A stretch of DNA of 45,057 nucleotides from Gammaproteobacteria bacterium. GTDB lineage: Bacteria; Pseudomonadota; Gammaproteobacteria; SZUA-152. The stretch lies in contig JAJDNG010000066.1 in the NCBI GenBank assembly GCA_022340845.1, positions 1 through 45,057 on the forward strand, read 5' to 3'. Position numbers and translations under genes: made by a program. A model generated the notes under the pieces. The model searched no databases. It was not told the origin of the DNA and was given only the letters and a program-made list of their open reading frames with translations. The stretch's first letter is position 1; each line of letters begins with the position of its first letter. Shown one piece after another: positions 4,452 to 31,071 of this stretch.

Positions 4452-5378
4452 TTACGCGCGAATCGTCCAGTACTTTACCCCTTGTTGATCCAAAAACGCT
4501 TCGGCCTGGTCTCCGTGCAGCATGGCCAAAGTGGCCATTATGCCGGCTTCGGTGCAAGTACCGGCAATCACCGTCACGGAGCGCGGCGCGCCTTGTACCG
4601 GCCAACCGGTGCGCGGGTCGAGGATATGGCTATAACGCACTCCGTCTTTTAATAAATATCGCCGCGCATCGCCGCTGGTCGCTAATCCCCCATGTTGCAG
4701 TTCATACACTTTGGTGTTTGCGTTGAGCGTAGCGGGTGAGGCATCCGGGGTTTCTATACCGATGATCCAGCCGTTGCCGTTGCGCCTTGGTCCGGTGGTG
4801 GCGATATCGCCACCGAAGTTGACCAGGCAACTGATGGCCGCCGCTTCACGCAATAACAGCACGGTGTGGTCCACGGAATATTCCTTGCCGATGCCGCCCA
4901 AATCGATTTGCATGTCCTTGGGCATGCGAATTTTTGGGGGGCGCCAATGGACTTTGTGCCAGCCGATGCGTGAGAGGATTTTTTTTATGCGGGCGGGCGC
5001 CGGTATGCGGTCACTGCCGTCGAATGTCCACGCCTCCCGCAATACGCCGGAGGTAATGTCGAACCTGCCATCGCTCAGCGCATAGCATTGGGCGGCGTAG
5101 TCCAGCATTTGCGCGGTTTCTTCATCGACTTTAACCGCGGCGCCTTGCGCGTGGTTGATCTTATGAATGATATTGTCTTGCCGGTAGCGGCTGAGTTTAT
5201 GCTCTACTCTCAGCGCTTCGCGCTGTGCAATGCCTGCAAGCTGCCCGGCGAGCACTGGATCTTGCGTATCCATCAGTACTTCGCAGGGACTGGCCATGGC
5301 ATTGAAGCGGCCTATGCAGTAGTCTTCGCTAAACTGTAGTTGCGGTGTGAGTTGCGGTATGAGTTGCGGCGTATCCAT
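4452..5378 (-). CDS. apbE: FAD:protein FMN transferase (ApbE family)
   Basis: Motifs 'SDGRFDITSG', 'IDLGGIGKEY', 'VNFGGDI', 'LATSGDARRY', 'YSHILDPRTGWP', 'SVTVIA'. Confidence 0.95.
   Translation of the reverse strand: MDTPQLIPQLTPQLQFSEDYCIGRFNAMASPCEVLMDTQDPVLAGQLAGIAQREALRVEHKLSRYRQDNIIHKINHAQGAAVKVDEETAQMLDYAAQCYALSDGRFDITSGVLREAWTFDGSDRIPAPARIKKILSRIGWHKVHWRPPKIRMPKDMQIDLGGIGKEYSVDHTVLLLREAAAISCLVNFGGDIATTGPRRNGNGWIIGIETPDASPATLNANTKVYELQHGGLATSGDARRYLLKDGVRYSHILDPRTGWPVQGAPRSVTVIAGTCTEAGIMATLAMLHGDQAEAFLDQQGVKYWTIRA
5338..5373. repeat. 3 x 12-bp tandem repeat in apbE 5' end (encodes TPQL/IPQL/TPQL)
   Basis: agttgcggtgtg / agttgcggtatg / agttgcggcgta. Confidence 0.8.
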
Positions 5379-5464
5379 AACGGTGATTTAGACCGATGGC
5401 GCGCTTGCCGGTTTGGTAAGTCGAGCCATTGTGCGCTCCACTCACCGCGTCCGGACAACGCGCA

Positions 5465-6880
5465 TTAAAATTTAACGTTATAACTTGCCTGCAGGATAAT
5501 CGCTTTAACATCGGGAGACAAATTATAGTCGCGTAATTTGCCAATCGCATCCGCCGGATAGCCCTGGTTCGATTGCTTCATGTATTCCGCCCGGAAAGTG
5601 AACTCGCTGTTTTTGCCAAGTTCCGCGCCGTACAGTAACCCGAATGTGGTCGTCGTCATATCACCCAGGCGATAGTCGGCGCTGGCGTATTGCGGCAGTG
5701 GCTCACCGTCCACCAGGTAGTAGCGATAAAAATTGGCGGCGGTTTGCTGATAATAACGTGCGTGGGGCTGCAGGTAATGATGCCGGCCTAGCTCGTAGCG
5801 ATAGCGCAAATCCACGGTGTGGGACTTAACGTCCCAGTCGTCCCAATAGTAACGATAGGTCAGATATACCACATCGTCGGTAAACTGATGATTGGTTTTC
5901 CAGTACACGCTTTGCCGGGTCCGCGAATCAGGGCGCCTTTCGTGTAAATATCGGTAGGTATTGTTGGGATCTACTGCGGGTACCAAGTCACCGGTCACTG
6001 GATCCACTACGGTCAAAAGTTTGTAGGGATCGGTTAAGTAGCCGCTGGACTGGCCTATGCTGTAATTGAACTGAGTGAGGGTGTGACGGCTGAGAACCTG
6101 GGTAACACCGAATAACAAGTCGGTGACATTTTTGGTTTCGCCGCCTTCGCCTTCCCCGCCTTCGCCGTCGTCATCACCTTCATTCTCGCCACCACTGGTT
6201 GAACTGGTGGGGACTTCCGTGAAAGGATCCGGGGCGCCGCCAATGGGGGAGACTGTGTCGTGACTGAACGACGCCCCGGCGGACAATGTGGTGTTTTTGT
6301 TGTTGGCGTCGTAAGTGAAAGTGGCAGATACTCCCAGCGACGTGTAATCGGTTTCGGTGGAGAAGTTTGCGCCCAACAAGGCTTTCAAGTAGCGGCTGGT
6401 GGGCTTTTCCCATAACACATTCGCCGCAAAGCGGGTGTCTTCAAACGTGGGGTCCAAAGGCGTTTCATTGGGCGCGACGGAGTAGGATTTTTGTCCTGAC
6501 GGACCGGAAAACGTTTGGGTTTTATCCGCGGGCACCGCACCGTTCGCGGACGCGCCACTGAGTGCGTCAACCACAAACTTGAAATTCAGGAATTGATCAT
6601 TCCCCATGTCGTTGCGGGCGCTGATTACCGGTTCCACGGCGGTCACGCGGTCCTGTTCTGAGTAATACAACAGCGCCGAATCGTATTCCCAGTTTTTAAA
6701 TGGTTCACTGGCCGCCGCCGGATGTGGCAGGTGCGTGCCCAGTAATGCGCACGTCGCGGTGGCCAGGGCGCCACTGATGGACTTTGGTTTTTTTACATGT
6801 AGAGGTTTTTTTCCCTGTAGGGGCTTTTTTACAGGAGTGGTTTTTTTTGCATGAAGGGATTTTTTTAATTGCATCCGCAA
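5465..6880 (-). CDS. DUF3570-family outer-membrane beta-barrel protein, putative flavinylation substrate
   Basis: Signal peptide, 'LYYSEQDRVTAVEP', 'VDALSGAS', 'GYLTDPYK', 'ERRPDSR', 'YRYYWDDWDVKSHT', 'YASADYRL', C-terminal Phe; context apbE/DUF4266/TlpA. Confidence 0.88.
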   Translation of the reverse strand: MRMQLKKSLHAKKTTPVKKPLQGKKPLHVKKPKSISGALATATCALLGTHLPHPAAASEPFKNWEYDSALLYYSEQDRVTAVEPVISARNDMGNDQFLNFKFVVDALSGASANGAVPADKTQTFSGPSGQKSYSVAPNETPLDPTFEDTRFAANVLWEKPTSRYLKALLGANFSTETDYTSLGVSATFTYDANNKNTTLSAGASFSHDTVSPIGGAPDPFTEVPTSSTSGGENEGDDDGEGGEGEGGETKNVTDLLFGVTQVLSRHTLTQFNYSIGQSSGYLTDPYKLLTVVDPVTGDLVPAVDPNNTYRYLHERRPDSRTRQSVYWKTNHQFTDDVVYLTYRYYWDDWDVKSHTVDLRYRYELGRHHYLQPHARYYQQTAANFYRYYLVDGEPLPQYASADYRLGDMTTTTFGLLYGAELGKNSEFTFRAEYMKQSNQGYPADAIGKLRDYNLSPDVKAIILQASYNVKF

Positions 6881-7095
6881 CCTCCACCGCCGACACCGGC
6901 GCCGCCACTGGAGGCTTCTTTACTGAAATAAATATGCTCATCCAAACCAGACTCCAATGGGTGTGGGTCCAGTTGCATTTTTTTCTCCGCCAGCAAATCC
7001 CGTTCCCAGGGTTTGACTCGCTCCAATGAACACGCTTGGGTGAGCACGACAAGCGGCAACAACGCCAAAAATAACGCTAAATAGATTCGGGGCAT
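6865..7095 (-). CDS. DUF4266-family small lipoprotein
   Basis: Lipobox TQAC, 'VKPWERDLLA', 'HIYFSKEASSGG..GGGGCGCN' C-terminus typical of DUF4266. Confidence 0.9.
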   Translation of the reverse strand: MPRIYLALFLALLPLVVLTQACSLERVKPWERDLLAEKKMQLDPHPLESGLDEHIYFSKEASSGGAGVGGGGCGCN

Positions 7096-7117
7096 AATAG
7101 GATACTCGGCTACAGGG

Positions 7118-7639
7118 TTATTGTTTCAGTAATTCGCGGATCTTGCTTTCCAGCTTTTCGGTATCCGATTCCCTGAAACCGATGTGAGATAGATGCAGTT
7201 GTCCTTTGCGGTCAATTAAATAGGAACTGGGCATGCCCATGACCTTGTAGCTTTCCGCGGTTTTACCTTCCGGGTCGAAAGCTACAATGAAGTTGCGATC
7301 AAACTCTTTTAAGAAGTCGTCCGCCTTGGATTTGCTTTTATCCAGATTAACGGCCACAACCACTAAACCTTTGTCTTTGTATTTACTTTGGATCTTGTTC
7401 ATCCAGGGAAAGGATTTGCGGCACGGTGTACACCAAGACGCCCAGAAATCCAGATACACGACACTCCCCTGCAACTGATTCAGTGAGATAGTGTTTTCGT
7501 CGGCGGGCAATTCAAATGTCGGTGCGTCGGCGGCGAACAAGAGGGGGGAGAAAATCGTTGTTGCTAAAACCAGAGTTGTTACCAAAACCAGAGTGGGCAA
7601 AGCGGGGCTTTGCGTGTTGCGATAAAAACGATACGGCAT
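7118..7639 (-). CDS. TlpA/ResA-like thiol-disulfide oxidoreductase
   Basis: 'VVYLDFWASWCTPCRKSFP', 'VVAVNLD', 'GMPSSYLIDRKG'; N-terminal hydrophobic signal or anchor. Confidence 0.92.
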   Translation of the reverse strand: MPYRFYRNTQSPALPTLVLVTTLVLATTIFSPLLFAADAPTFELPADENTISLNQLQGSVVYLDFWASWCTPCRKSFPWMNKIQSKYKDKGLVVVAVNLDKSKSKADDFLKEFDRNFIVAFDPEGKTAESYKVMGMPSSYLIDRKGQLHLSHIGFRESDTEKLESKIRELLKQ

Positions 7640-10228: not shown

Positions 10229-11124
10229 GGTTCCAGCGCCATATTGTCTGTAATGGTTAGTTGATCGAATCCCGTTTGGCTGCACTTTTTGCCGGCCAAG
10301 GTGTTGGCAAAACGCAGGCTGTCGGGTAAAGATAATTGGTTTAACGCCGCGTGAATCATTGCAGCGTTAAACGTGTCCCCCGCGCCTATTGTATCTACCA
10401 CGTGGGAAATTTGCACGGCAGGCGCGAAATGTAATAACCCTTGTTTATCTATGGCATAAGCGCCTTGTGCTCCCCAAGGGCACACCAACCACGGTGAGGC
10501 GCATTTTGACCGCCAGGCGCGTAAAAAAGCAGCGCCCTCCGGGTATTGCATGGTATTGGCAAAATGGCGGGAAAATAACAGCATATCGCCAAAACGGTAC
10601 AATGCCTCAAGGTGTTCACGGGGTTTTTCAATTTCCAGGGAGATTTTTATCCCGGGATACTGGCGGTGCACAAATTCGAGGATCTTGACGGTGTCGGGCA
10701 CATTTCTACCTTCCAGGTGTAACCAGTCCACGTTGGATAACGGGGGGAGGTTTGCCACAAAATGCTCGAAACTGAATTCCGGCAATTCACGATGGTGCAC
10801 AATGGTGCGCGAGCCATTGTGTTGATTCAGGGTGATGTAAGAGGTCGGTGCATGGCCGCCCGCAATCAAGGCGCAATGGCTCAAGTCGATGCCACGGTGT
10901 TGCAAATCAGCCTTAATCCGCTCACTGTCGGCATCGTCCGCCAAGGTGCCGGCCCATTCACACTGATGGCCCAGTTGGCGTAACACTGTTAACGTATTGG
11001 CGACGTTGCCACCGGGGCGTACCGTCTGGCTCAGGGCGCGGACTTCGGCGTCCTCCCCGGGAAAGCCGTCGGTTGTATTGATTATGTCCAACGTCGCGAT
11101 ACCAATGCCTAGGATGCGGGCCAT
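10225..11124 (-). CDS. PfkB-family carbohydrate kinase, ketohexokinase-like
   Basis: 'GGNVAN', 'NGSRTIVH', 'WLHLEGRN', 'ISLEIEKPR', 'VDTIGAGDTFNA'. Confidence 0.88.
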   Translation of the reverse strand: MARILGIGIATLDIINTTDGFPGEDAEVRALSQTVRPGGNVANTLTVLRQLGHQCEWAGTLADDADSERIKADLQHRGIDLSHCALIAGGHAPTSYITLNQHNGSRTIVHHRELPEFSFEHFVANLPPLSNVDWLHLEGRNVPDTVKILEFVHRQYPGIKISLEIEKPREHLEALYRFGDMLLFSRHFANTMQYPEGAAFLRAWRSKCASPWLVCPWGAQGAYAIDKQGLLHFAPAVQISHVVDTIGAGDTFNAAMIHAALNQLSLPDSLRFANTLAGKKCSQTGFDQLTITDNMALEP

Positions 11125-11132
11125 GCGAATCC

Positions 11133-11435
11133 TCAGGGGGTTTTGGATTTACTTTTCATGGGTGACAAGGGCAGGTACACGCTAAAAATGTCCAAAATTA
11201 CCCAGAACACCACCATGACCAATATATACCAGGCATTTTGGTCCAGATACGCCAAGGCGCCAAACAGCATTAAGTCCCAAACATACAACATGGTATAGGC
11301 CACGAGTACATAGGGATAAGAGCAGGATTTACCGTGACATTCACGGCAATAGATCAAAGCCCATTTGGCGGCTTTATATTTTTGCCACCAACTGATAGTG
11401 GGCTTTTTACAATGAGGGCAAGGTAGCGCAGACAT
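11133..11435 (-). CDS. Small membrane protein with CxxC-x20-CxxC followed by two TM helices (cxxc_20_cxxc-like)
   Basis: CPHC and CREC are exactly 20 residues apart, followed by ~45 hydrophobic residues; ends 8 bp before pfkB. Confidence 0.7.
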   Translation of the reverse strand: MSALPCPHCKKPTISWWQKYKAAKWALIYCRECHGKSCSYPYVLVAYTMLYVWDLMLFGALAYLDQNAWYILVMVVFWVILDIFSVYLPLSPMKSKSKTP

Positions 11436-11784
11436 GTGCAGGCATGGATTCTATTGTATGGGTCTCGTTAGCGGCTCAATCATATCAAAAATAGACAATG
11501 CCCGGTGCTCTAAATACGCCAGGGGGCATTTTAGGGCGGAAGAGAAGTGCAAATAAATACCTTCCTCCTGGCTGAAAAATGTTTGTATTGCCGTTACAAT
11601 GGCTCTGGATGCGGGGGGCGCAGCCCGCTGGAACTACCCGCTAGCACTAAATAATACTCTTGTTGTAATAAAAGCCGCACAAAAAAGCGCTTTGCAATAG
11701 CACAATTAAACAACACGAATAAACGACACCATTTTCATAAAGAAGCTAACCGTAAGGGTGAAGCCCGTAGATATCCCTAAGCAT

Positions 11785-12330
11785 ATGAGTCATCCGATTT
11801 TACGTTTTGTTTTTCTAATGGCGTTGCTCCTGACACAAGCGGCGTGTGACAACAATACCAAGTTGATGCAGAGCGCCATGTCCGGCGACTTGCCTGCTGT
11901 CAAATCCCAAATAGACGCCGGCGCGCCAATCAACGCCCGCAATAACTATGCTTGGACTGCGTTACACCATGCGGCCCGCAAAGGCGAAACCGAAATTGTG
12001 GCGTTGTTGTTAGATCATGGCGCCGAAATCGATGCGCAAGACCAACGAGGCTGGACACCGCTGATGCGCGCTGCTGCCAAAGGCCACCAAGACACGGTTG
12101 CACTTCTGCTCAAGCGCGGCGCTAATCCGGACTTGCGTGACAAAGACGGCTGGACGGCGTTAATGTGGGCGGTGAAGCAGGATTATTTATCGGTGGTGGA
12201 ACAACTGACCGCCGGCGGCGCCGATGTTAACATTAAAGCCGACGATGGCCGCAGCGCACTGTTACTGGCCCATGGTGAGGGCAATGCGCAAATAGGCGAA
12301 GTGTTGCGTAAAGCGGGGGCGAAGTTCTAA
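11785..12330 (+). CDS. Ankyrin-repeat lipoprotein
   Basis: Lipobox QAAC; repeats 'WTALHHAA', 'GWTPLMRAA', 'GWTALMWAV', 'GRSALLLA'; ATG 11785 preferred over GTG 11758. Confidence 0.9.
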   Translation: MSHPILRFVFLMALLLTQAACDNNTKLMQSAMSGDLPAVKSQIDAGAPINARNNYAWTALHHAARKGETEIVALLLDHGAEIDAQDQRGWTPLMRAAAKGHQDTVALLLKRGANPDLRDKDGWTALMWAVKQDYLSVVEQLTAGGADVNIKADDGRSALLLAHGEGNAQIGEVLRKAGAKF

Positions 12331-12334
12331 GGGC

Positions 12335-13000
12335 ATGATCATTTCAGGCGTGGCATTGATTAAACGATTAACCATCATTGCGTGTGTTACGGCGGCGATA
12401 TTTGCCGGTTGCAAAGCCGAGTATATAACCGATAGTCGCAGCGCCCCTTACGTGGTGGATAGCGGTGTCGGTATAGGGAAACGCTGGGAGGATAAATCCG
12501 GCCCGGCCCCGCAACTGAACGCGGAGGGTCTTGCCGAAGACGGGATTCATGATCCCGACAACGAAGCTATGGCCGTGCTGCAAGAGCCGCGCGATGCCAT
12601 GGCGGCATTTCCACTGGATCGCAGCGGTGCAGTGGACTGGGTCAAGGCGCTGGACTTAGGGGTCATTACACCCAGGGCCGATATTGATGGCAACGCCGAC
12701 ATGGTGGTGATGGACATGGATGTAACGTTTAAAGACACCGGTGAGATGCCGTGGGTCACGTTCACCCATACGGCGCACACCGAATGGTTGGGTTGCGATA
12801 CCTGTCATGCGGATATTTTTGTTCCCAAAATTGGCGCCAATGAGGTGTCCATGGACAGTCTTTTTGCCGGAGAATACTGTGGCCGATGCCATGGCGCCGT
12901 GGCGTTTGGACTGGCCGTTTGTGAGCGTTGCCACAATACCCAGCAAAATTCCGCGAAGGAAAAATCATCGGCGGTCGGGCCAGCGCCGTCATCCCGTTAA
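12335..13000 (+). CDS. Triheme c7-type cytochrome c lipoprotein
   Basis: Lipobox FAGC; FTHTAH, then CDTCH, M..GEYCGRCH, CERCH. Confidence 0.9.
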   Translation: MIISGVALIKRLTIIACVTAAIFAGCKAEYITDSRSAPYVVDSGVGIGKRWEDKSGPAPQLNAEGLAEDGIHDPDNEAMAVLQEPRDAMAAFPLDRSGAVDWVKALDLGVITPRADIDGNADMVVMDMDVTFKDTGEMPWVTFTHTAHTEWLGCDTCHADIFVPKIGANEVSMDSLFAGEYCGRCHGAVAFGLAVCERCHNTQQNSAKEKSSAVGPAPSSR

Positions 13001-13027
13001 CAATAATAATGATAGTGAATAAAGTCA

Positions 13028-13777
13028 GTGGCAAAAACGACTCGATTTGCACTTAATACCATCGGCGCCGTAGCAATATCGCTAGGTTTGGGTATGGGGG
13101 TTTTAAACAGTTGCGCAACCGGCGACGCTCAGTCAAGCGCGCCCGCCGGGCAAAACGAGGCCAATGAGGTGAAAGCCGCGGCATCCGGGGATGAGGGTCA
13201 TCCGCTTGATCGCCAGCAAGCCCTGGAATTGCTGGCGAAATCAGACCAATATTTAAATCCCATTGCAGGCGATGCAAATCAAGACTCGGGGCTAAAGCCG
13301 CTAAGCATTCCCCAGGAAGGGGCCAGCGAATCACCGCGCAACGACGGCATTCACGACACCCAAACCAATTCCATTGCGGTGTTGCAGGATCCCTCCAAAG
13401 CGATGGCGGCGTTTCCCCGTGATCGCCGTAATCAAGTGGACTGGGTGGCAGCACTGGACCAGGGCCTGATTCAACCGCGGGCGGACTTGTTGGGCGAGAC
13501 CCAAATGCAAACCATGGACATGGATATTCTCATGAAAAATACCCAATTCATGCCATGGGTGAAGTTTCCCCATTTACAGCACACCAAGTGGCTGGCCTGC
13601 TCCAATTGTCACCCGGACATATTTATCCCCCAACAAGACGCCAATCCCATTAGCATGAATAAAGTGTTGCGTGGCGAATACTGCGGTGTGTGCCACGACA
13701 AAGTGGCGTTTGCACTGTTTATTTGCGAGCGTTGTCACAGCGTGCCGCACGAAGGTTCGGGGGAGAAGTGGTGGTGA
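13028..13777 (+). CDS. Triheme c7-type cytochrome c lipoprotein (paralog of the upstream gene)
   Basis: Lipobox LNSC; FPHLQH, then CSNCH, M..GEYCGVCH, CERCH; shares the DGIHD..AVLQ.P..AMAAFP.DR...VDWV.AL..G.I.PRAD block. Confidence 0.9.
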   Translation: MAKTTRFALNTIGAVAISLGLGMGVLNSCATGDAQSSAPAGQNEANEVKAAASGDEGHPLDRQQALELLAKSDQYLNPIAGDANQDSGLKPLSIPQEGASESPRNDGIHDTQTNSIAVLQDPSKAMAAFPRDRRNQVDWVAALDQGLIQPRADLLGETQMQTMDMDILMKNTQFMPWVKFPHLQHTKWLACSNCHPDIFIPQQDANPISMNKVLRGEYCGVCHDKVAFALFICERCHSVPHEGSGEKWW

Positions 13778-13924
13778 ACAGAAGTTAAACCGTTACGACG
13801 CTAATAACTCCGATCAAACCTGGATTCCAGGCGGAGTATGTGTACCTCGTCTGGCAAAATCATGGGTCACTGTATTCTCTGGGGGCTTATCGCAATGGTA
13901 AACAACTTGGCGTCTTGGAGGCTG

Positions 13925-14683
13925 TCATTGGGGTTTCTTGTCATAAAACTCGCTTAACAATTTCAGCACGTCTGCACTGTCGTTTTCGCTGGCGATGTCA
14001 AAGGCGTTAAAACCGTCATCGTCTTGAAGGGACGCGTTCGCGCCCTTTTCCAATAGCAGCTTGGCCACTTTAGGTTTGTTGAAGGCAGCGGCTGCCATAA
14101 TGGCGGTGCGTTGCTTGATGCCTCTGGCGTTCGGACTCACGCCGTGATCCAGGAGCACTTTGGCCACTTCAATGTGCCCCAGGCCCGCGGCGATCATCAT
14201 CAGTTCTTCCGCGTCATTTTGTGGCAGGCCAGAGGCGTGTTTTAGCAATGCTTTGACGGTATCGGCATGGCCAAAAAACGTGGCATTGCTTAATGCTGAT
14301 CCGCCGCTACTGTCTTTATGAGTGGGGTCGGCGCCATGTTCGGCCAGGAATCGTGCCGTTTCGGTTTTGTTTCCGGTTGCCGCGACGATGAGGGCTGTGG
14401 TGCCAAAATTATCTTGCCGATCAATCTGGGCGCCATAGTCTATGAGTAACTTGACGACCTCAACATGACCATTGGAGGCAGCCAGCATTAATGCGGTTTT
14501 GCCTTTCTCGGTGCTGTAATCCACTTCCGCGCCGCCATTGATGGCACGTTTGACGGCTTCGAGGTTGCCGTCGCGGGAGGCTTTCATGAGTTCAGACAGG
14601 CGCTCACCGCCACAGGCGTTCAAACCCAGCAACGTGGCAAGGAGTATTATGAGGCGCCAATTGATCCTGCTGGGGGATAACAT
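13925..14683 (-). CDS. Ankyrin-repeat lipoprotein
   Basis: Lipobox LNAC; about 7 ankyrin repeats (GKTALMLAA, GTTALIVAA, RTAIMAAA). Confidence 0.9.
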   Translation of the reverse strand: MLSPSRINWRLIILLATLLGLNACGGERLSELMKASRDGNLEAVKRAINGGAEVDYSTEKGKTALMLAASNGHVEVVKLLIDYGAQIDRQDNFGTTALIVAATGNKTETARFLAEHGADPTHKDSSGGSALSNATFFGHADTVKALLKHASGLPQNDAEELMMIAAGLGHIEVAKVLLDHGVSPNARGIKQRTAIMAAAAFNKPKVAKLLLEKGANASLQDDDGFNAFDIASENDSADVLKLLSEFYDKKPQ

Positions 14684-14750
14684 AAAAAGCTGAATGCTTT
14701 TTCGAGTCCGGTTGTATTAGGGGTGCGTGATACCGCCTGGCATGACAGAC

Positions 14751-16007
14751 TTATTTCTTCATGGAGTTGAAAAAATCGTCATTGGTTTTGGTTTCTTTCA
14801 ATTTATCCAGCAGGAACTCTATGGCCGCCACCTCTTCCATGGGGTGAATGATTTTGCGCAGTATCCACATCATTTGCAACTCTTCCGGATCGGTAATGAG
14901 TTCTTCGCGGCGGGTACCGGAGCGATTGATGTTGATGGCGGGATAAATGCGTTTTTCGGAAATTTTGCGGTCCAAATGCACTTCCATGTTACCGGTGCCT
15001 TTGAATTCTTCAAAGATAACATCGTCCATGCGTGAGCCGGTGTCTACCAGGGCGGTGGCGATAATGGTCAGGCTGCCGCCTTCTTCGATGTTGCGGGCCG
15101 CGCCGAAAAAGCGTTTCGGTCGTTGCAAAGCATTGGCATCCACACCACCGGTGAGTACTTTGCCGGAGGAGGGCACCACCGTATTGTAAGTCCGCGCCAG
15201 ACGAGTAATGGAGTCGAGTAAAATGACCACATCTTTTTTGTGTTCCACCAGACGCTTGGCTTTTTCAATGACCATTTCCGCCACTTGCACATGGCGGCTG
15301 GCGGGTTCGTCGAAGGTACTGGAGACCACTTCGCCGCGCACTGAGCGGGCCATTTCGGTCACTTCCTCGGGACGTTCGTCGATGAGTAGGACGATTAAAT
15401 AACATTCGGGATGGTTGGAGGTTATAGACTGCGCAATGTGCTGCAACATCATGGTCTTGCCCGATTTTGGCGGCGAGACAATCAGTCCGCGTTGACCTTT
15501 ACCGATTGGTGAGCACAAATCAATGACTCGCGCGGTCAAATCCTCAGCGCTGCCGTTGCCGCGTTCCATGTGCAGTCGCTCGTTGGCGAATAACGGCGTG
15601 AGGCTTTCGAACGGCAATTTGGTCTTGGCGTGTTCTGGCTGTTCAAAATTAATTTCATTGACCTTCAATAACGCAAAATACCGCTCACCGTCTTTTGGGG
15701 GGCGAATTTTTCCCGCCACAGTATCGCCCGTACGCAAACTGAAACGGCGTATTTGGCTGGGTGATACGTAGATATCGTCGGGGCCGGCCAAATAAGAGCT
15801 GTCGGCGGAGCGTAAAAAGCCGAAACCGTCCTGGAGGATTTCCAATACACCGCCACCATAAATATCTTCCCCGCTTTTTGCGTGGGCTTTTAATAATGCG
15901 AAGATGATATCTTGTTTGCGGGAACGGGAGGCGCCTTCAATGCCGTTTTCACGGGCCAAGTCATTAAGCTCGGTGGCGGTTTTTTGCTTAAGTTCATTAA
16001 GGTTCAT
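14751..16007 (-). CDS. rho: Transcription termination factor Rho
   Basis: [56 protein letters not shown]. Confidence 0.99.
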
Positions 16008-16252
16008 GTTGTTGTTACACTTTCTGGTGGGTTGATAATATTTAAGATTTACTAATAGGGCGGCGCAGATGGGGCGCAGCCTAAAGAGCTGAGTTTTAGT
16101 TGTTAATTATTCAGTGTTCAGGAGGATTGCCGGATATCGGCGAGTACCGATTTTTTTAACTCAAAATACCCGGATACGCTAACACGTTATTGTGATGACG
16201 TAAACCCTGTGCCGGAAATTTTACGCCACCACGATGATTTCGCTTGATGCAG

Positions 16253-16579
16253 CTAAATATTACTATCTAAAAAGGCGGTGAGCTGGGATTTAGAAACTGC
16301 ACCCACTTTCGTAGCTTCCACATTGCCTCCTTTAAATAACATCAACGTGGGAATGCCGCGAATTCCGTATTTGGGTGGCGTCGCCGGATTTTCATCGATA
16401 TTCAGTTTGGCGATTTTAACGCGGTCTGCGTATTCGTCAGCGATTTCATCCAAAATCGGCGCAATCATCTTGCAAGGACCACACCAATCGGCCCAATAGT
16501 CTACAAGCACCGGCCCATCCGAGTTGATGACTTCCGTTTCAAAAGTATCGTCAGTGAGGTGAAAGATCTTATCACTCAC
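16253..16579 (-). CDS. trxA: Thioredoxin 1
   Basis: WCGPC; GTG start at 16579 with GGAGG RBS; trxA-rho synteny. Confidence 0.98.
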
Positions 16580-16990
16580 GTGGTTTACCTCCAATTAGAA
16601 TTGATAATTTTTGACCCTAACACATTTCAGCCCAATCAGGCTGCGATTTCAAGTTATACGATAAGGTTTCGCTACGGTTTTTCTGTCTAAGGCCGAAAAA
16701 AGCGGGCTGTCGGTCAAAAAATAGCCGGATCATTGATGGCCGATTCATTGGCAGCGCGCGGGTTGTACATTTGATTCCAGTTTGGGCCCAGTGTATGCGG
16801 ATTCGCAAAAGTGAGCGGTTTCGCAATAAGTTGTCTTATTTGTTGTTTTATTTATCCGGTCTGCATCACGAAAAATATGGCAGGTCATTGTGTTCAATAT
16901 AAGGGGTTGGTAATAAATTTCAACAAAATTTTGCGTTTTTGTTGAAATTGTTGATCCGGGAGCGGATTGTCGACCCCAACCGGCCATCAG

Positions 16991-20090: not shown

Positions 20091-23000
20091 TTACTTGGCG
20101 GGCGTTGACGACGAGTTAAGCTTCTGTTGTTCCATAATTTTTTTGAAATCTTCCATGGTGAATTTGGGCTTCTTGCTTCTCGCCGGTTTGACCGACAAGG
20201 ATTTTTGCAGGACGTATTTGCTGCCGTCCGGTCTCATCAGGCTCAGTTGATAGCTGCCCATGGGCAAATTTGCCGGAACCTGCAGTTGAAAATCGTCGTC
20301 CCTGGTCCTGCGCAGGGAGACATCCGCAATCCGGGTTACCGAATTGACGGTTTTGTCCCCGCCGACGAAGATGGCGTGCTCGTTTACGGCCAAAGAATCC
20401 AGGGTGGCAGTCGGCGGATAGACCACGCTTAGCCTGGGGGAGCTGCGGTCGCTAATATCGATGTCTAATACGCCGACAGGCCCGCTCGCCACATACAAAT
20501 GCTGGCCGTACACCTGGATATCGTCAACGACCCCACTGTATTCAAAAAACCCCGTCGGGCGAATTTGATTATCGTGCTGCTGCAACAAGTATATCCCACG
20601 GCCGGTTTCGCTAAGGACGATAGTGTCCTGTGTGACGCGTACCAGGTGTGCCGGTTGCTCGGTAGGGAAATGGGCCAGTGGGACGAGCTGAAAATGTTCG
20701 TTGATGCGGTAAACGGTCAAGCCTTTTTCCGCAGAACTGAGAAATAACTGTCGCTGGTGGAGCTGAAAATCGAAACAGTCATTGCTGTTGTCTCTACAGG
20801 TCATGGGGAGTTGGGTAGCGATGCGCGGATTGCCGGGCTGGCTTACATCCACGAGCAACAGGCCGACACGCTCATCTCTGGCAACCAGCAGGGAATCATC
20901 ACCGCTCACGCGTTGTATTCTACCGGGGGTTTGTAATCGGCCCAGCCAATGCACATAGAATGGATCGGCGATGTCGGCAATGACAATACCTTCGTCGTCC
21001 GCGGCCAGGTAGGCTTTGTCACCCGCCAGGGCGATATCGCGCACCGCGCCGCTGATATCCAAGCCGGTCGCCCAGATAGGATTGAGCGGGTTCTGAATGT
21101 CATACACTTGCATGCCGCCGGCACCGTTGGCGGTATACAAAAAATTATCCTGTATCGCCAACCGTCGTATCAATCCCTTGCCATGATACCGGCCTGCGGC
21201 TTGCGGCTGTAATGGATTACTAATGTCGATGACTTTGATACCGCCCCACCAGTCCCACACATAAGCGTGATTTCTGTAAATGTCCACACCCCAAGCCGAA
21301 CCGTCAGTATCGTAATAAGACACAATTCGCGGGGCGGAGAGTTTGCGTATGTCCACCACCTGCAAGCCCGATTCCCAGCCGGCGATATACGCATAAGGGC
21401 CATCCAAGGCAACACTGCGGGCATTACCTGGAATGGGCGTGTGGCCGGTCAACTGCGGTTGGCGGGGATTGGTGATATCCAGGATGTAAAATCCCTTATC
21501 GAAAAAAGCGACGTAGGCATGATTGCCGGCTATGACAACATCCTCAGCATACCCCTGGGGATCGAACTGGCCGATCAGCTCAATGGCGCCGGGATCGTGC
21601 ACGTCAAATACCAGCAGCCCGGAAGTATCATCCGCCACGTAGGCGAAGCCGTCGGCCACATCAATGGCCCAGGATTTCCCGGGTGTGTCATAACTGCCGA
21701 TGATTTTAGGCTGTTGAATGTCGCTGACATCAATGATGTGAAAACCGCCGCGATGATCGGCGAGATAAATCAGATCGCCCACCAGCTTCATGGTATAGGC
21801 CAGGCCGGATGTTAATATCTCGGAGATTTTGCGCGGCTGTTGCGGGTCACTGATATCGATGATTTGCAGGCCATGGTCGTCGTCGCCCACAAAAGCAATA
21901 TTGTCGCGGACCACCACGCCTTTGGAGGATCCGGGCGTGTGGAAGTTGCCCAGGTGACGCGGGGCGTGGGGAATGCTGATATCGTAAAGATGCAGGCCCG
22001 AAAACCAATCGGCTACGTAGGCGATATTGTCACGAATGAAAGCCCGACGGCTGCCGCCCTGGTTGATGCCTTCATTGGAGATTTGGATGGCTGCACTGGC
22101 CGCAAAGTCAATTCGCTCTACACCCTCGTTAGTGGCTGCAATCACATACGGCCAATCCACCAGCAAGTCGTTTATGTGTCCTTGGGGTTTATAGATACTG
22201 TCCGTAATAGGCAGCTGTGGGTTACTTACATCCAGACTGAGCAACCGCTCGGCGGCGTTATTCACTATGGCGATAATGCCTTGGTAAACGGCGACATCGT
22301 AGACAGGGCCCATTTTATGATGGCTTCCCATCCAATGAATATGTTGGGGATCGCTGACATCAAACACACTCATGCCCGATGCACCACCGGCTACAAATGC
22401 CAGATGGCCCTCCACGGTGATGTCCTGGCCTTGCCCGAATGGGAGGCGAAAACCGGGATTGATGCGGGGGCTGGAGGGATCGCTGGCGTCGATCACTTGC
22501 ACTGCGAATTCATCACCGCTGAGATAAACCTGAGTTCCGGCGACGAAAATCGCGTTAAACCGGCCTTGCAAAGGGACTTCGGCTTGCGGCTGAGTATGGC
22601 GTAGGTTATCAGAACCTGCCAGGGGAAAAATCAGCACTTTTCGCTGTCCGGCCAGTACGTAGGCTTTATCAGAGGCCACCGCCATGGCAGTGACCGGAGC
22701 GTTCAGCGAAAGCGTGCCCTGTAACGCCAACACGCTGTCCGCACCGATGTCATACATCAACACCTTACCGTTGTCGGTACCCGCATATAATTTGTCATTC
22801 TCAACACACAAGGCGGTAATCGGGTGTTTTAGCAACGTCAATCCAAGAGTCTGTGCGTATGGCTTGGAGAAGTCGATGCTGTAAATGGTGTCACCGGCGG
22901 CGGCAAATACGATGTCCTGGTGTTTGGCCAGCACATTGGCGGGCTGGGGAAGTTTGAGAACATGAGTGGCATAAGGCCCCGCCGGCTGCAATGCGGGCAT

Positions 23001-23198
23001 GGCATCGTCTGGCAGGTTCTGCAACGACAGGGAGACAGTAGCCTGCTGGCCAAAATCAACCTGTTCCGGAGCCATAGTGCTGATGCGAACCGTTGACAGT
23101 GTGTCCTCAAAGGTTGCGGCATTCAGCCCCATCCGGGGAGCGCTGAGCAATGTAATACTAAGTAGTATGCAGGTAACGGGTAAAATTTGAATTTTCAT
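20091..23198 (-). CDS. Secreted LVIVD-repeat multi-beta-propeller protein
   Basis: Signal peptide from ATG 23198; about 20 repeats of ~42 aa such as 'AYVADWFSGLHLYDISIP', 'AFVGDDDHGLQIIDISDP', 'AYVADDTSGLLVFDVHDP'. Start could be 23249. Confidence 0.9.
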   Translation of the reverse strand: MKIQILPVTCILLSITLLSAPRMGLNAATFEDTLSTVRISTMAPEQVDFGQQATVSLSLQNLPDDAMPALQPAGPYATHVLKLPQPANVLAKHQDIVFAAAGDTIYSIDFSKPYAQTLGLTLLKHPITALCVENDKLYAGTDNGKVLMYDIGADSVLALQGTLSLNAPVTAMAVASDKAYVLAGQRKVLIFPLAGSDNLRHTQPQAEVPLQGRFNAIFVAGTQVYLSGDEFAVQVIDASDPSSPRINPGFRLPFGQGQDITVEGHLAFVAGGASGMSVFDVSDPQHIHWMGSHHKMGPVYDVAVYQGIIAIVNNAAERLLSLDVSNPQLPITDSIYKPQGHINDLLVDWPYVIAATNEGVERIDFAASAAIQISNEGINQGGSRRAFIRDNIAYVADWFSGLHLYDISIPHAPRHLGNFHTPGSSKGVVVRDNIAFVGDDDHGLQIIDISDPQQPRKISEILTSGLAYTMKLVGDLIYLADHRGGFHIIDVSDIQQPKIIGSYDTPGKSWAIDVADGFAYVADDTSGLLVFDVHDPGAIELIGQFDPQGYAEDVVIAGNHAYVAFFDKGFYILDITNPRQPQLTGHTPIPGNARSVALDGPYAYIAGWESGLQVVDIRKLSAPRIVSYYDTDGSAWGVDIYRNHAYVWDWWGGIKVIDISNPLQPQAAGRYHGKGLIRRLAIQDNFLYTANGAGGMQVYDIQNPLNPIWATGLDISGAVRDIALAGDKAYLAADDEGIVIADIADPFYVHWLGRLQTPGRIQRVSGDDSLLVARDERVGLLLVDVSQPGNPRIATQLPMTCRDNSNDCFDFQLHQRQLFLSSAEKGLTVYRINEHFQLVPLAHFPTEQPAHLVRVTQDTIVLSETGRGIYLLQQHDNQIRPTGFFEYSGVVDDIQVYGQHLYVASGPVGVLDIDISDRSSPRLSVVYPPTATLDSLAVNEHAIFVGGDKTVNSVTRIADVSLRRTRDDDFQLQVPANLPMGSYQLSLMRPDGSKYVLQKSLSVKPARSKKPKFTMEDFKKIMEQQKLNSSSTPAK

Positions 23199-23372
23199 AG
23201 TGCTACGGATTAAATGACGATGAAGCATGTTACGGAGAATTAAAGGCATGGTGTGCAGGTAATTTGAATGATTGCTAACACTGTACAGCGAAGTTTGTTT
23301 ACGAAGTTATTATGGCGGTTGTTGATCGATTGTAAAACCGAACCTTTTCCCCCAAGTCTCAACATTACCCGC

Positions 23373-25238: not shown

Positions 25239-25640
25239 TTATTGAGTGGGTTGAATGACCGGCCGGGGTTTGCCCGCGGCGTCCACCGCAACATAGGTGA
25301 CCGTGGCCTCGGTGACTTTGATGCGCTCCGGATTGGCGGGATTGCGCTCGGCATACACCTCCACCAATACCGTGATGGAGGTAGTGCCGATGCGGGTGAT
25401 GCTCACGTAGCAACTGACCAGATCGCCCACGTAAATAGGTTTGTGGAATTGGAATTCCTTCACCGCCACGGTGACGACGCGGCCTTTGGCTTTGCGGCTG
25501 GCCTCGATACTGCCCGCCAGGTCCACTTGGGCCATAATCCAACCGCCGAATATGTCCCCGGCGAAGTTGGTATCCTGCGGACGGGCCAGCAAGCGTATGG
25601 TCGGTTCGGCCTCAGGCGGTTTGTTGTTTTCGGTGCTCAT
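25239..25640 (-). CDS. yciA: Hotdog-fold acyl-CoA thioesterase (YciA family)
   Basis: 'PQDTNFAGDIFGGWIMAQVDLAG', 'RVVTVAV', 'YVAVD..GKPR'. Confidence 0.9.
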   Translation of the reverse strand: MSTENNKPPEAEPTIRLLARPQDTNFAGDIFGGWIMAQVDLAGSIEASRKAKGRVVTVAVKEFQFHKPIYVGDLVSCYVSITRIGTTSITVLVEVYAERNPANPERIKVTEATVTYVAVDAAGKPRPVIQPTQ

Positions 25641-27474
25641 GGCTAGGCACATCAAAATCGTCGGGTGAATCGTGGCCGGCGTACAAGTTGGCTATGGTAT
25701 CGGCGTAGTGTTCCATGATGCGCTCGCGCTTGAGTTTCAGTGTGGGGGTGATCAAGTCGTTTTCCACGGTCCACGGCTCCAGGGTCAACGCAACCGTTTG
25801 AATCTGCGCATAGCCCGGAAATTCCTTGATTTGCTCGCACACCCGTTGCAATACGGCGCTTACGCTTGCGTCGCTACGCAGTGAATGCGGGTTGTTACAG
25901 TCCTCGCCAAGCTGGGTGCATAGGTTTTGCCACTGGGCCGGATTCAATACCAGCAATGCGGACAAATACGGCCGGCCTTCGCCCACCACCATCACCTGGT
26001 CAAACAGTGGGTCCATGGCAATGGACAGTTCCATATCACTGGGCGGGACTTTTTCGCCGTTGGATAAGACGATGATTTCCTTGAGCCGGCCGGTGATGTA
26101 AATACGGCCTTGTTCGTCGAGCCGGCCTTTGTCCCCGGTGTGCAGCCAGCCTTCGTTATCGATTATGGCTTCAGTGGCTTGTTTGTTGTGCCAATATCCC
26201 AGCATCACCAGGGGGCCGCGCACCAGCAATTCATCATTGTCGCCGATACGCACTTCAGCGCCATTGAGCGGTGGGCCGACACTGGCGGGCTCGTTGTTGC
26301 TCGGTGTGTTGACAGCGATAATGGGGCTGGTTTCCGTCAGCCCATAGCCCTGCAATAACTGTATGCCCAGGCCAATAAAGGTTTTTGCCACCGAAGTGGA
26401 CAAGGGCGCGCCACCGCAAATGGCGACTCGCAGGCGGCCGCCCAGTTTGGCGGCGATTTTACTGGCCACCAGGGCTTTGAGGATGGGCCAGGCCAAATGG
26501 GATTTGTCGGGATGTTCAAACCGGTCCCAGCCCACCGCTACGGCTTTGTGGAACAGGTTCCGGGCAAAAGCCGGTTTTTCCTCCAACTGGGCGGCAATTT
26601 TGTTGTACACCCGTTCGTAGATTCGCGGCACGGATATCAACACCGTGGGACGAATGCTCAGCAGGTCTTCCGCCAGGTCTTGCACGGAACGGGCAAACGC
26701 CGTCTGGGCGCCGGTTAACATGGGAACATAATAACCGGCGGTGCGTTCCAGCATGTGGGATAAGGGCAGAAAAGATAAAAACACATCTTCGCGATAACAT
26801 GGCACTGACTGTACGCCGGCATGTACGTCGCTGAGTATATTGGTATGGCTTAACATGACGCCTTTGGGCCTGCCGGTGGTGCCCGAGGTGTATACAATCG
26901 TGGCCAATTCCCCAGGCTGGCTTTCGTTGGCTTGCAAGTCGTTTTCGTCCAGCGTCTGCGGAATATTTTCCAGCCATTCATCCAGTGTCAGCAAACGACT
27001 GAAGCGGTTGTATTCATGGCACGGTTGCAGGCTTAACAGTCGAACCAGTCCCTCCATTTGCGAAGCAATGGCCTCCAACTCCCGTAACTGTTCGACGCCT
27101 TCAATGAGTAGCAGTTTGATGCCGGCGTTTTGTAATACGTAGGAAATGTTTTCGGTGCGGTCATTAGTGTACATCGGCACAACCACCAGGCCCATGCCTA
27201 AAGCGGCTTGTTCGAACTGGACCCATTGCGGACAATTACGCAACATAATGGCTACCCGGTCGCCGGGGCGCAGGGATTCGTTGGCCAATGCCGCTTGCAT
27301 GCGCGCGACTGTCACCGCGCTCTGGCGCCATGAAAGCTCCTGCCACTTCTGGCTTTGTGGGTGGTAATAACGATACGCCGTTAAATCGGGGCTGCGTTTG
27401 ACGCGCTCTCTAAACAGGCCTGCTAAGGTGCTCGTTTGCTCCGGCGTTATAATGTCCAGTGTCTTAGGATGCAT
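25612..27474 (-). CDS. fadD: Long-chain fatty acid-CoA ligase (AMP-dependent)
   Basis: 'IVYTSGTTGRPKGVMLSH', 'FLPLSH', 'QGYGLTE', 'GWLHTGDKG', 'TPTLKLKR'. Confidence 0.92.
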   Translation of the reverse strand: MHPKTLDIITPEQTSTLAGLFRERVKRSPDLTAYRYYHPQSQKWQELSWRQSAVTVARMQAALANESLRPGDRVAIMLRNCPQWVQFEQAALGMGLVVVPMYTNDRTENISYVLQNAGIKLLLIEGVEQLRELEAIASQMEGLVRLLSLQPCHEYNRFSRLLTLDEWLENIPQTLDENDLQANESQPGELATIVYTSGTTGRPKGVMLSHTNILSDVHAGVQSVPCYREDVFLSFLPLSHMLERTAGYYVPMLTGAQTAFARSVQDLAEDLLSIRPTVLISVPRIYERVYNKIAAQLEEKPAFARNLFHKAVAVGWDRFEHPDKSHLAWPILKALVASKIAAKLGGRLRVAICGGAPLSTSVAKTFIGLGIQLLQGYGLTETSPIIAVNTPSNNEPASVGPPLNGAEVRIGDNDELLVRGPLVMLGYWHNKQATEAIIDNEGWLHTGDKGRLDEQGRIYITGRLKEIIVLSNGEKVPPSDMELSIAMDPLFDQVMVVGEGRPYLSALLVLNPAQWQNLCTQLGEDCNNPHSLRSDASVSAVLQRVCEQIKEFPGYAQIQTVALTLEPWTVENDLITPTLKLKRERIMEHYADTIANLYAGHDSPDDFDVPSHEHRKQQTA

Positions 27475-29605: not shown

Positions 29606-29628
29606 TCCGTTTCGCTCTGAGTCAGGGA

Positions 29629-31002: not shown

Positions 31003-31071
31003 CTAAGCACGCTCCTATTGTCAGGTATCACATTTAAGCGTTATGTCTAACACATTGTCATTTGCTTGCTA

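Follow-up and report, generated by a model that had tools for sequence, protein, structure and literature searches.

The 45,057-nucleotide window analysed here, from a Gammaproteobacteria bacterium of the GTDB lineage SZUA-152 (assembly GCA_022340845.1, contig JAJDNG010000066.1), contains at positions 11785 to 14683 a block of four genes in which two triheme c-type cytochromes, cytA and cytB, lie between two ankyrin-repeat proteins, ANK1 and ANK2 (genes ank1 and ank2), with a predicted lipoprotein signal on every product. Related blocks, with one or two triheme cytochromes between two ankyrin lipoproteins, occur in uncultured wetland and sediment bacteria. The cytochromes appear to be periplasmic c7-type carriers of a known kind; their tethering and their pairing with ankyrin lipoproteins are apparently new. 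Across genomes, gene order and co-loss show a real association with the ankyrin genes, strongest for ANK2; it is not obligatory and, for ANK1, not exclusive.

The first three genes are on the forward strand and closely packed. The ank1 gene (11785-12330; 181 amino acids (aa) from its ATG, or 190 aa from an alternative GTG at 11758) is followed after 4 nucleotides (nt) by cytA (12335-13000, 221 aa) and, after a further 27 nt, by cytB (13028-13777, 249 aa, GTG start). The convergent ank2 gene (13925-14683, reverse strand, 252 aa) lies 147 nt past the cytB stop and 67 nt 3' of rho. Each product begins with a signal peptide ended by a lipobox (QAAC, FAGC, LNSC and LNAC, respectively), whose cysteine is invariant in orthologue alignments of ANK1 (22 rows), cytA (25 rows, Cys26) and ANK2 (21 rows, Cys23) and at least 90% conserved in that of cytB (23 rows). 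A crude lipobox scan was positive for only 89 of 3352 non-overlapping open reading frames (ORFs) of the same genome, and four consecutive lipoprotein genes are therefore not expected by chance; the assignment of all four products as lipoproteins, with predicted lipidation, is supported. Pfam Ank families match the products of ank1 and ank2 (Ank_2, E values of 2.5e-33 and 1.8e-43), and Pfam scans of the block and of the window ORFs detected no porin or catalytic gene within the four-gene block. An earlier sequence-only reading of this DNA had proposed the same arrangement, including the run of lipobox genes, the gaps of 4 and 27 nt, the convergent second ankyrin gene and the lack of a porin or catalytic subunit, and on each of these points the ORFs, the sequence and the Pfam scans bear it out.

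Both cytochromes exceed the cut-offs of the relevant profile models, with 39.1 (cytA) and 41.2 (cytB) bits against 24.8 for Pfam Cytochrome_C7 (PF14522), and 61.3 and 59.1 bits against 40 for the NCBIfam model TIGR04257 (nanowire_3heme), which answers the comparison with c7 and triheme models that the sequence-only reading had proposed. An FxHxxH motif, three CxxCH motifs and a Met ahead of the second CxxCH, all recognised in that reading, are invariant in the two families: in cytA as F143, H145, H148, C154/C157/H158, M173, C182/C185/H186 and C196/C199/H200 (25 orthologues), and in cytB as F180, H182, H185, C191/C194/H195, M210, C219/C222/H223 and C233/C236/H237 (23 orthologues). When the 25 cytA orthologues were searched as a profile against the PDB, the dodecahaem cytochrome GSU1996 (3OV0) was retrieved with an E value of 2.8e-25, through positions 139-198 only, and PpcA-type c7 proteins received weak scores. 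The family Met (M173 or M210) is matched there to residues 209 and 287 of the 3OV0 chain, which are, according to the accessible text of PMC10138318, the axial Met of GSU1996 domains C and D; the same text describes one His/Met haem per GSU1996 domain and exclusively bis-His haems in PpcA-type proteins. By homology to GSU1996 (TIGR04257 matches, Met alignment and fold comparison), a c7-type triheme domain is supported for cytA and cytB, as had been suggested from the motifs, with two haems predicted to be bis-His and one predicted to be His/Met.

That fold comparison rests on an AlphaFold2 model of cytA built from 134 sequences, with a mean predicted local distance difference test score (pLDDT) of 77.9 and values of 80-96 over residues 60-170; an earlier model from 25 sequences had a mean pLDDT of 55.5, fell below 50 in its c7 part, and gave no match in Foldseek. 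In the usable model, residues 125-203 are predicted to adopt the c7 fold: they superpose on GSU1996 domain C (3OUE/3OV0) with Z 5.6 and a root-mean-square deviation of 2.8-2.9 Å over 76-77 residues, and Foldseek pairs the model with 1RWJ (probability 1.00, TMt 0.67). The Z score of the GSU1996-type superposition is modest, yet above that of every unrelated row.

Preceding the c7 domain of cytA is a conserved module of about 70 residues (approximately positions 60-124), for which two structure searches returned no fold match, though they barely tested it. Residues 33-66, nearer the lipid anchor, make up a tether segment that is conserved in cytA. His72 and Asp73, part of a five-residue motif at residues 69-73, are invariant in 134 diverse relatives. 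All six axial haem ligands are already supplied inside the c7 domain; His72 and Asp73 could form a metal site, provide a seventh ligand or contact a partner. In the cytB alignment the core is invariant and a C-terminal His...Trp-Trp tail is conserved, and positions from about 30 to 95 show no consensus. This leaves some 65 unconserved residues between lipid anchor and haem module, which would be long enough for a flexible leash. Units of the cytA/cytB type are also found fused to class-I/cbb3-type monohaem domains (P0186, P0187, and Atlas clusters of 157, 59 and 104 members), and these natural fusions therefore point to class-I c-type cytochromes as putative redox partners. Separately, an 805-aa protein (P0122) consists of five tandem units, each comprising the later half of the N-terminal module and a triheme domain, with 15 haem sites in all; judged by this architecture it is a polymerised form, distinct from GSU1996.

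The nearest kin of cytA and cytB are the trihemes of the undecahaem electron transfer (uet) cluster, described, in the accessible text of 10.1101/2022.05.06.490989, from 'Candidatus (Ca.) Tenderia electrophaga' and neighbouring orders, with homologues in Gallionella (PMC10734462). A scan of one genome per species yielded at least 569 cytA relatives, of which the best 80 loci were used. From these we built a quick maximum-likelihood tree of 126 rows, comprising family matches of at least 150 bits and four proteins of the window's own genome, with shorter UetD-like matches and fragments left out. Its clades, with supports from the Shimodaira-Hasegawa-like approximate likelihood ratio test (SH-aLRT), are cytA (28 rows, support 86), cytB (17 rows, 96), UetE-like (28 rows, 99), UetG-like (30 rows, 88) and a group of singletons (16 rows, 94). 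The tree thus sets cytA and cytB apart in two separate clades next to the UetE-like and UetG-like ones, and by this placement they are orthologous to none of UetD, UetE or UetG. Many loci ranked below the top 26 contain a short c7 gene, then a long one and, separated from it by about 1.7 kb, another c7 gene, which matches the order UetD-UetE-UetF-UetG given for 'Ca. Tenderia electrophaga' in the accessible text of 10.1101/2022.05.06.490989. By a crude regular expression, a lipobox is present in only 2 of 32 UetD-like, 3 of 28 UetE-like and 7 of 54 UetG-like or singleton ORFs. A C-terminal tail of their own marks cytA and cytB, and the ankyrin-linked clades are exactly the lipidated ones; both are best viewed as lipidated sister clades, or offshoots, of the mostly non-lipidated UetE/UetG-type trihemes. 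The kinship to Uet proteins to which the sequence-only reading had pointed is accordingly upheld by gene order, tree and identities.

Uet-type genes are in fact widespread among the carriers. The window's own genome encodes six TIGR04257 proteins, and its other contigs carry genes like UetD (65% identity), like UetE and, in split form, like UetJ. Within the window's order, 29 of 32 genomes have a UetD-like gene (the three without are 73-86% complete), and UetD/E/G-like triplets are present in all five carriers checked outside it, which belong to a group whose block lies beside PutA and a sugar kinase. Membership of the block in a uet cluster was considered and rejected, since its surroundings have neither the UetC barrel nor the UetJ undecahaem, UetF or NHL genes. 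A second cytA-clade lipoprotein gene stands alone elsewhere in the same genome (contig C162, 7584-8213, forward strand); its shorter branch and retained C-terminal tail suggest a duplication in the window's genus, followed by divergence of the ankyrin-linked copy.

Comparison of loci from three directions revealed a consistent association of these cytochromes with ankyrin genes. Among the best 26 of the 80 cytA-relative loci, an ANK1-type gene lies directly upstream in 25 and an ANK2-type gene is present in 23, two of the three exceptions being cut by contig ends; in the remaining 54 loci, which represent paralogues, neither was found (0/54 for each). Within the window's order (32 species genomes in one family and seven genera, the surroundings being compared in the 31 other than the window's own), a cytA-like gene is universal (32/32). 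ANK1 is directly upstream in 27 of the 31, and ANK2 is present in 24, with three more cut by contig ends. Both ankyrin genes are absent in four of the 31, one of these being a short contig of a 75%-complete genome, which may hold the C162-type paralogue instead. The survey of neighbourhoods that the sequence-only reading had called for thus returned ankyrin neighbours in 25/26 loci and 27/31 genomes, and so came out in favour of that reading, for which homologues without such neighbours would have been a refutation.

The association is also seen when the ankyrin genes are taken as the starting point. An ANK1-alignment scan of metagenome contigs gave 307 relatives, and in the best 80 loci the gene directly downstream is of c7 type in 53 and of another type in 21, with no contig room in 6. 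The c7 gene therefore follows in 53 of 74 assessable loci, 51 of them by a strict rule; in the other two (L134 and L192) the ORF called as longest overlaps ank1. When 400 genomes of the class, evenly sampled, were scored, an ANK2-like gene (E <= 1e-30) was found in nine: the window's own, two more of the same family and six that belong to four further families. Of the eight besides the window's own, four have an adjacent c7 gene, one has an ANK1-c7 pair 1.6 kb away and three reach a contig end, so that a c7 gene is near ANK2 in all five assessable cases, four of which belong to families f44, f69 and f140. The ANK1-cytA pairing extends to at least three families besides the window's, and the block to at least four families. 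Most loci lie between Fur-ThiO-PfkB and Rho-TrxA genes and one group lies beside PutA and a sugar kinase; the block stays together although the flanks differ. The distance from ank1 to the next gene is 0-110 nt, or the two overlap, in the loci compared. Mirror-tree correlations over 23 genomes were 0.83 for ANK1-cytA (0.57 given Rho) and 0.90 for ANK1-ANK2 (0.68 given Rho), which lend weak support because fast-evolving envelope proteins correlate with each other anyway.

The two ankyrin lipoproteins themselves differ at the residue following the lipobox cysteine. In ANK1, Cys21-Asp22 is invariant in 22/22 orthologues and Cys-Asp in all 27 ANK1 genes of the order, whereas Asp occupies this position in just 5 of the 89 crude lipoprotein candidates of the window's genome. 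In ANK2, which has six repeats, the residue is Gly, Ser or Thr in 21/21 and never Asp, and Asp was likewise absent there from every listed N-terminus of cytA and cytB. Under the Lol-avoidance rule of E. coli, Asp at position +2 keeps a lipoprotein in the inner membrane. By this rule, which may not be that of the host, ANK1 is predicted to reside in the inner membrane, and ANK2, cytA and cytB in the outer. A Trp following Gly is conserved in repeats 1-3 of ANK1, at a target-contact position of designed ankyrin binders. An affiliation with Legionella-type Ank effectors was rejected, the NCBIfam matches being to generic repeats and far below cut-offs. Prediction of a complex of cytA (residues 27-221) with three haems, ANK1 (22-181) and ANK2 (24-250) returned a score of 0.00 with an uncertain cytochrome fold, and speaks neither for nor against binding.

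From the domains, motifs, lipoboxes, gene order, clades and shared ankyrin losses documented in this study, we infer a pathway of electron flow, a sorting of the four products and a contact between ankyrins and cytochromes along the following lines. Both cytochromes would be exported by Sec and anchored by lipid, presenting three haems in a GSU1996-type c7 domain behind a family-specific module; their most likely task is to pass electrons on within the periplasm. Such a relay would connect the multihaem outer-membrane machinery of these genomes (Uet and others) with class-I c-type cytochromes, or with oxidases, of the inner membrane, and the cytB tether would allow its haem head to sweep the periplasm. 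The ankyrin lipoproteins, ANK1 predicted for the inner and ANK2 for the outer membrane, would be accessory rather than core components, serving to dock, orient or stabilise the tethered cytochromes. The components of this proposal differ in strength. That cytA and cytB are periplasmic, lipid-anchored electron carriers is highly probable, and their tie to extracellular electron transfer is an evenly balanced question. A functional coupling of ANK2 to the cytochromes is favoured, if by no wide measure, while direct binding between ankyrin and cytochrome is somewhat doubtful. A more specific form, in which ANK1 and ANK2 are docking stations for tethered trihemes in a trans-periplasmic relay from Uet-type outer-membrane conduits to the respiratory chain, is unlikely. 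The overall explanation that we prefer, lipid-anchored periplasmic carriers accompanied by dispensable accessory ankyrin lipoproteins, has in our estimation an even chance of being correct.

That cytB is optional is apparent from the single cytochrome gene in 10 of the 26 best cytA loci and 12 of the 31 genomes of the order; the heterodimer envisaged in the sequence-only reading is consequently not supported as an obligate unit. The ankyrin genes can also be lost. In three genomes of one genus (G001, G003 and G006; loci L098, L103 and L100), comparison with a sister genome (G008, L105) shows gene-precise deletion of ank1 and ank2: the flanks and the cytA-cytB pair share 86-92% nucleotide identity with those of the sister, and what is absent is precisely the two ankyrin genes. 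As these cytochromes remain intact, the ankyrins are dispensable; and since two separate deletions affect the same three genomes, ANK1 and ANK2 probably depend on each other or work together. Such genomes are natural knock-outs and, beside their sisters, ready controls.

These losses, with lipobox-bearing cytA and cytB left in place, head a series of observations that weigh against our preferred explanation. Downstream of ANK1, 21 of the 74 assessable metagenome loci have genes other than c7; an unrelated lipoprotein gene of about 150 aa comes next in 18 of the 21, and a gene with an FGE-sulfatase domain follows further on in 13. The ANK1-like/~150-aa lipoprotein operon, whose ANK1-like product is again a Cys-Asp lipoprotein, is found as well in one Tenderia sp. 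and one Chromatiaceae genome, with PfkB divergent in the Tenderia sp. locus. Between 65 distinct cytochrome-linked and 20 other-type ANK1 sequences, no position is conserved in both (threshold of at least 70%) with differing residues, and the Trp of repeats 1-3 is common to both. The conserved surface is therefore not apparently tuned to the downstream product, and these residues do not look partner-specific. The cytA of the window is itself a long branch lacking the family C-terminal tail, and its C162 relative has no ankyrin neighbour. The Asp+2 sorting rule belongs to E. coli and may not hold in this lineage; part of the linkage may be synteny inherited among relatives; the locus is set among housekeeping genes rather than in an electron-transfer island; and, as a weak point, a search for longer relatives found no fused ankyrin-cytochrome protein (1196 candidates, none scored). 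Collectively, the genomes without ankyrins and the different operon headed by ANK1-like genes weaken the notion, taken from the sequence-only reading, of cytochromes organised by ankyrin scaffolds. As an observation on that second operon (L122:1-1905, reverse strand; L163:3447-7124), it comprises the ANK1-like gene, the ~150-aa lipoprotein with no Pfam family, variable genes often including UPF0047, and a secreted FGE-sulfatase-domain protein.

Much of this would be expected if the ankyrins were simply long-standing neighbours, ANK1 being a resident of a PfkB-adjacent locus with a job of its own (for example, binding a common envelope component), behind which the cytochromes were inserted with no functional link beyond location and perhaps transcription. 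The divergent PfkB retained beside an ANK1-like gene in Tenderia sp. with a different lipoprotein gene next, the identity of conserved ANK1 residues in both operon types, the persistence of the cytochromes in three ankyrin-less genomes, the solitary cytA-clade copy on C162 and the shared synteny of many carriers as relatives are all in its favour. Set against these are the exclusive occurrence of ANK2 beside c7 genes wherever the contig can be assessed, the co-loss of ANK1 and ANK2 though they flank the cytochromes on opposite sides, the persistence of the block where both flanks have changed, its occurrence in at least four families, the close spacing or overlap of ank1 with the next gene (0-110 nt), and the coincidence of ankyrin linkage with lipidation in the tree. 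On balance we regard a purely positional association as rather unlikely, though it is the strongest of the competing accounts.

Other alternatives grant the ankyrins or the cytochromes a different function. As maturation or stability factors (periplasmic chaperones, or agents of haem handling) for lipidated cytochromes, instead of docking adaptors, the ankyrin lipoproteins would have analogues among ankyrin proteins that serve catalases, such as AnkB, which serves KatB in Pseudomonas aeruginosa. According to the accessible text of PMC11442138, the ankyrin protein Cj1386 of Campylobacter binds haem and delivers it to catalase KatA, yet it is listed there with the haem-trafficking proteins of the cytoplasm. 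The haem of catalase is haem b. A helper would suit the tight ank1-cytA spacing and the dispensability of the ankyrins in some genomes, and the conserved aromatics of ANK1 repeats 1-3 might, speculatively, stack on porphyrin; on the other hand, ANK1-like proteins also precede a non-haem lipoprotein, and no catalase family was found among the 28 larger window ORFs scanned. Attachment of c-type haem is, moreover, the work of Ccm/Ccs systems, and we consider a maturation role quite improbable. Least probable of all, though by a small margin, is a role of the tethered trihemes as donors to periplasmic enzymes of peroxide or redox stress instead of to an energy-conserving chain, with the ankyrins paralleling the catalase-linked ones. 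The window's genome does hold three CCP/MauG-family genes, the neighbours of the block include a Fur-family regulator, a peroxiredoxin-like redoxin and thioredoxin, and PpcA donates electrons to the dihaem peroxidase MacA in Geobacter (accessible text of PMC10582990). Yet none of these peroxidase genes lies in the window or the conserved block, carriers consistently have Uet-type clusters, and the natural triheme fusions are to class-I/cbb3-type cytochrome domains. TrxA-Rho is, besides, a common housekeeping pair.

Returning to the tethered carriers with accessory ankyrins, their resemblances to described systems are informative as to what is shared and what is distinctive. The Uet trihemes have the same c7-type unit and N-terminal module, occur in the same genomes, are represented by a UetG-like protein of a Tenderia sp. 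locus with which cytA and cytB are 42-51% identical, and have likewise been proposed as periplasmic electron carriers; they differ in their mostly plain signal peptides, cytA and cytB being lipoproteins that form separate clades with a tail of their own, flanked by ankyrin genes and located outside the uet cluster. GSU1996 of Geobacter sulfurreducens (3OV0, 3OUE, 1RWJ), the best sequence and fold match for residues of approximately 125-203 and one whose axial Met aligns, has four tandem domains, whereas cytA and cytB have a single, lipid-anchored domain and an additional N-terminal module with invariant His72/Asp73. With PpcA-E of Geobacter they share the triheme c7 fold and, by prediction, a shuttling function in the periplasm, but the PpcA proteins are soluble and of about 70 aa. 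All three haems of PpcA are bis-His (accessible text of PMC10138318); in the PpcA family model NF043011, cytA reached 22.2 bits against a cut-off of 120 and cytB gave no match, placing both outside that family. The flexible tethers that extend small haem domains in PgcA of Geobacter ('hemes on a string') recall the unconserved stretch of cytB, with the difference, going by the accessible portions of PMC10570954 and PMC11520253, that PgcA is extracellular and its repeats join haem domains, while the cytB tether would join one triheme head to a lipid anchor.

Ankyrin genes beside haem-protein genes, and needed for the full function of their partners, are known from the catalase systems. AnkB of P. 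aeruginosa and Cj1386 of Campylobacter jejuni each represent one ankyrin gene serving a catalase (haem b), in contrast to the two ankyrin genes and c-type cytochromes of the block, and no catalase gene is adjacent among the 28 larger ORFs of the window. To judge from the accessible text of PMC11442138, Cj1386 with its catalase is the nearest precedent of an ankyrin protein serving a haemoprotein. The sequence-only reading had called the system a candidate undescribed module, and our search agrees in that no paper on it was found. None was found that links ankyrin repeats with c7 cytochromes, although the supplementary orthogroup tables of the Tenderia work may list orthologues. A literature query combining ankyrin repeat, c-type cytochrome and extracellular electron matched solely a paper on CsrA in Geobacter, and the word 'ankyrin' does not occur in the accessible text of two Tenderia papers (including 10.1101/2022.05.06.490989) or of the Gallionellaceae pangenome paper (PMC10734462).

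As to expression, a promoter-like site at 11572..11600 on the forward strand (sigma-70-like, 9/12 matches) is a putative start of an ank1-cytA-cytB transcript and coincides with the one stretch that is well conserved when the sequences upstream of ank1 in the window and in three relatives are aligned. Promoter and terminator counts over 11100-16700 were no higher than in shuffles. The ank1 upstream region has no FNR-type box; over the whole window, FNR-type palindromes with at most 2 mismatches number 46 against 22.9 expected, a count reached in 0 of 100 shuffles. Among public runs, 20 contain the stretch; they come from wetland, rhizosphere, marsh and soil samples, and six of them are RNA libraries. 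RNA-library contigs from four studies include parts of cytA and cytB and all of ank2 and rho, bridging ank2-rho in 4/4 runs and cytB-ank2 in 2/4; as they indicate neither strand nor level and DNA carry-over is possible, they are not proof of transcription. By the same token, the almost complete lack of ank1 cover in four RNA runs is uninformative.

The surroundings of the block include genes for Fur, ThiO, PfkB, Rho, TrxA and a GGDEF protein, and a mobile island was rejected as an explanation, the flanks being conserved housekeeping genes. Divergent from ank1 is a gene for a 100-aa protein (11133-11435, reverse strand) whose N-terminus carries a CxxC...CxxC ribbon and for which two membrane helices are predicted; it has no Pfam family and a weak TIGR04104 match, and its position is kept in 13 of 27 loci compared. 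Farther away on the reverse strand are genes for an ApbE flavin transferase, a DUF3570 protein (E 5e-133) and a redoxin/AhpC-like protein (4452-7639), which may constitute a small envelope redox cluster, and for a 1052-aa protein with LVIVD repeats and beta-propeller matches (20091-23249). A full fatty-acid beta-oxidation set (acyl-CoA synthetase, FadB-like protein, thiolase and large acyl-CoA dehydrogenase) lies beside a phosphoribulokinase gene (25612-33576 and 36257-37132, also on the reverse strand). This last enzyme, a Calvin-cycle marker, supports the suggestion of a likely autotroph in the sequence-only reading; given the beta-oxidation genes, the organism is probably not a strict one. 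Many multihaem ORFs are scattered through the genome, among them a 2054-aa ORF with 80 CxxCH motifs (C130:11083-17247, forward strand), ORFs with 17, 31 and 21 haems (C276:12950-18572) and others with 9 and 21 (C96:336-2785). Two further ankyrin proteins are encoded not far from such genes, perhaps by chance: one of 565 aa (C276:8195-9892), two opposite-strand ORFs away from the 17/31/21-haem genes, and one of 965 aa (C96:7066-9963), about 4 kb from the multihaem cluster.

Models of extracellular electron uptake, those of iron oxidation and of cathodic growth among them, leave the passage of electrons across the periplasm open. In the Uet model the trihemes are taken to diffuse freely, and our study documents that the same lineages also keep versions predicted to be membrane-tethered, which travel with two ankyrin lipoproteins differing at the lipobox sorting position. 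These four small proteins offer a testable set for distinguishing organised from diffusive periplasmic electron transfer. Ankyrin repeats of bacteria, usually discussed as host-targeting effectors, thereby gain a possible housekeeping role in the envelope. Should the unlikely relay with docking stations prove true, it would provide a new answer to how electron-uptake lithoautotrophs bridge the periplasm and, to our knowledge, the first ankyrin-repeat adaptors in a bacterial respiratory electron-transfer chain.

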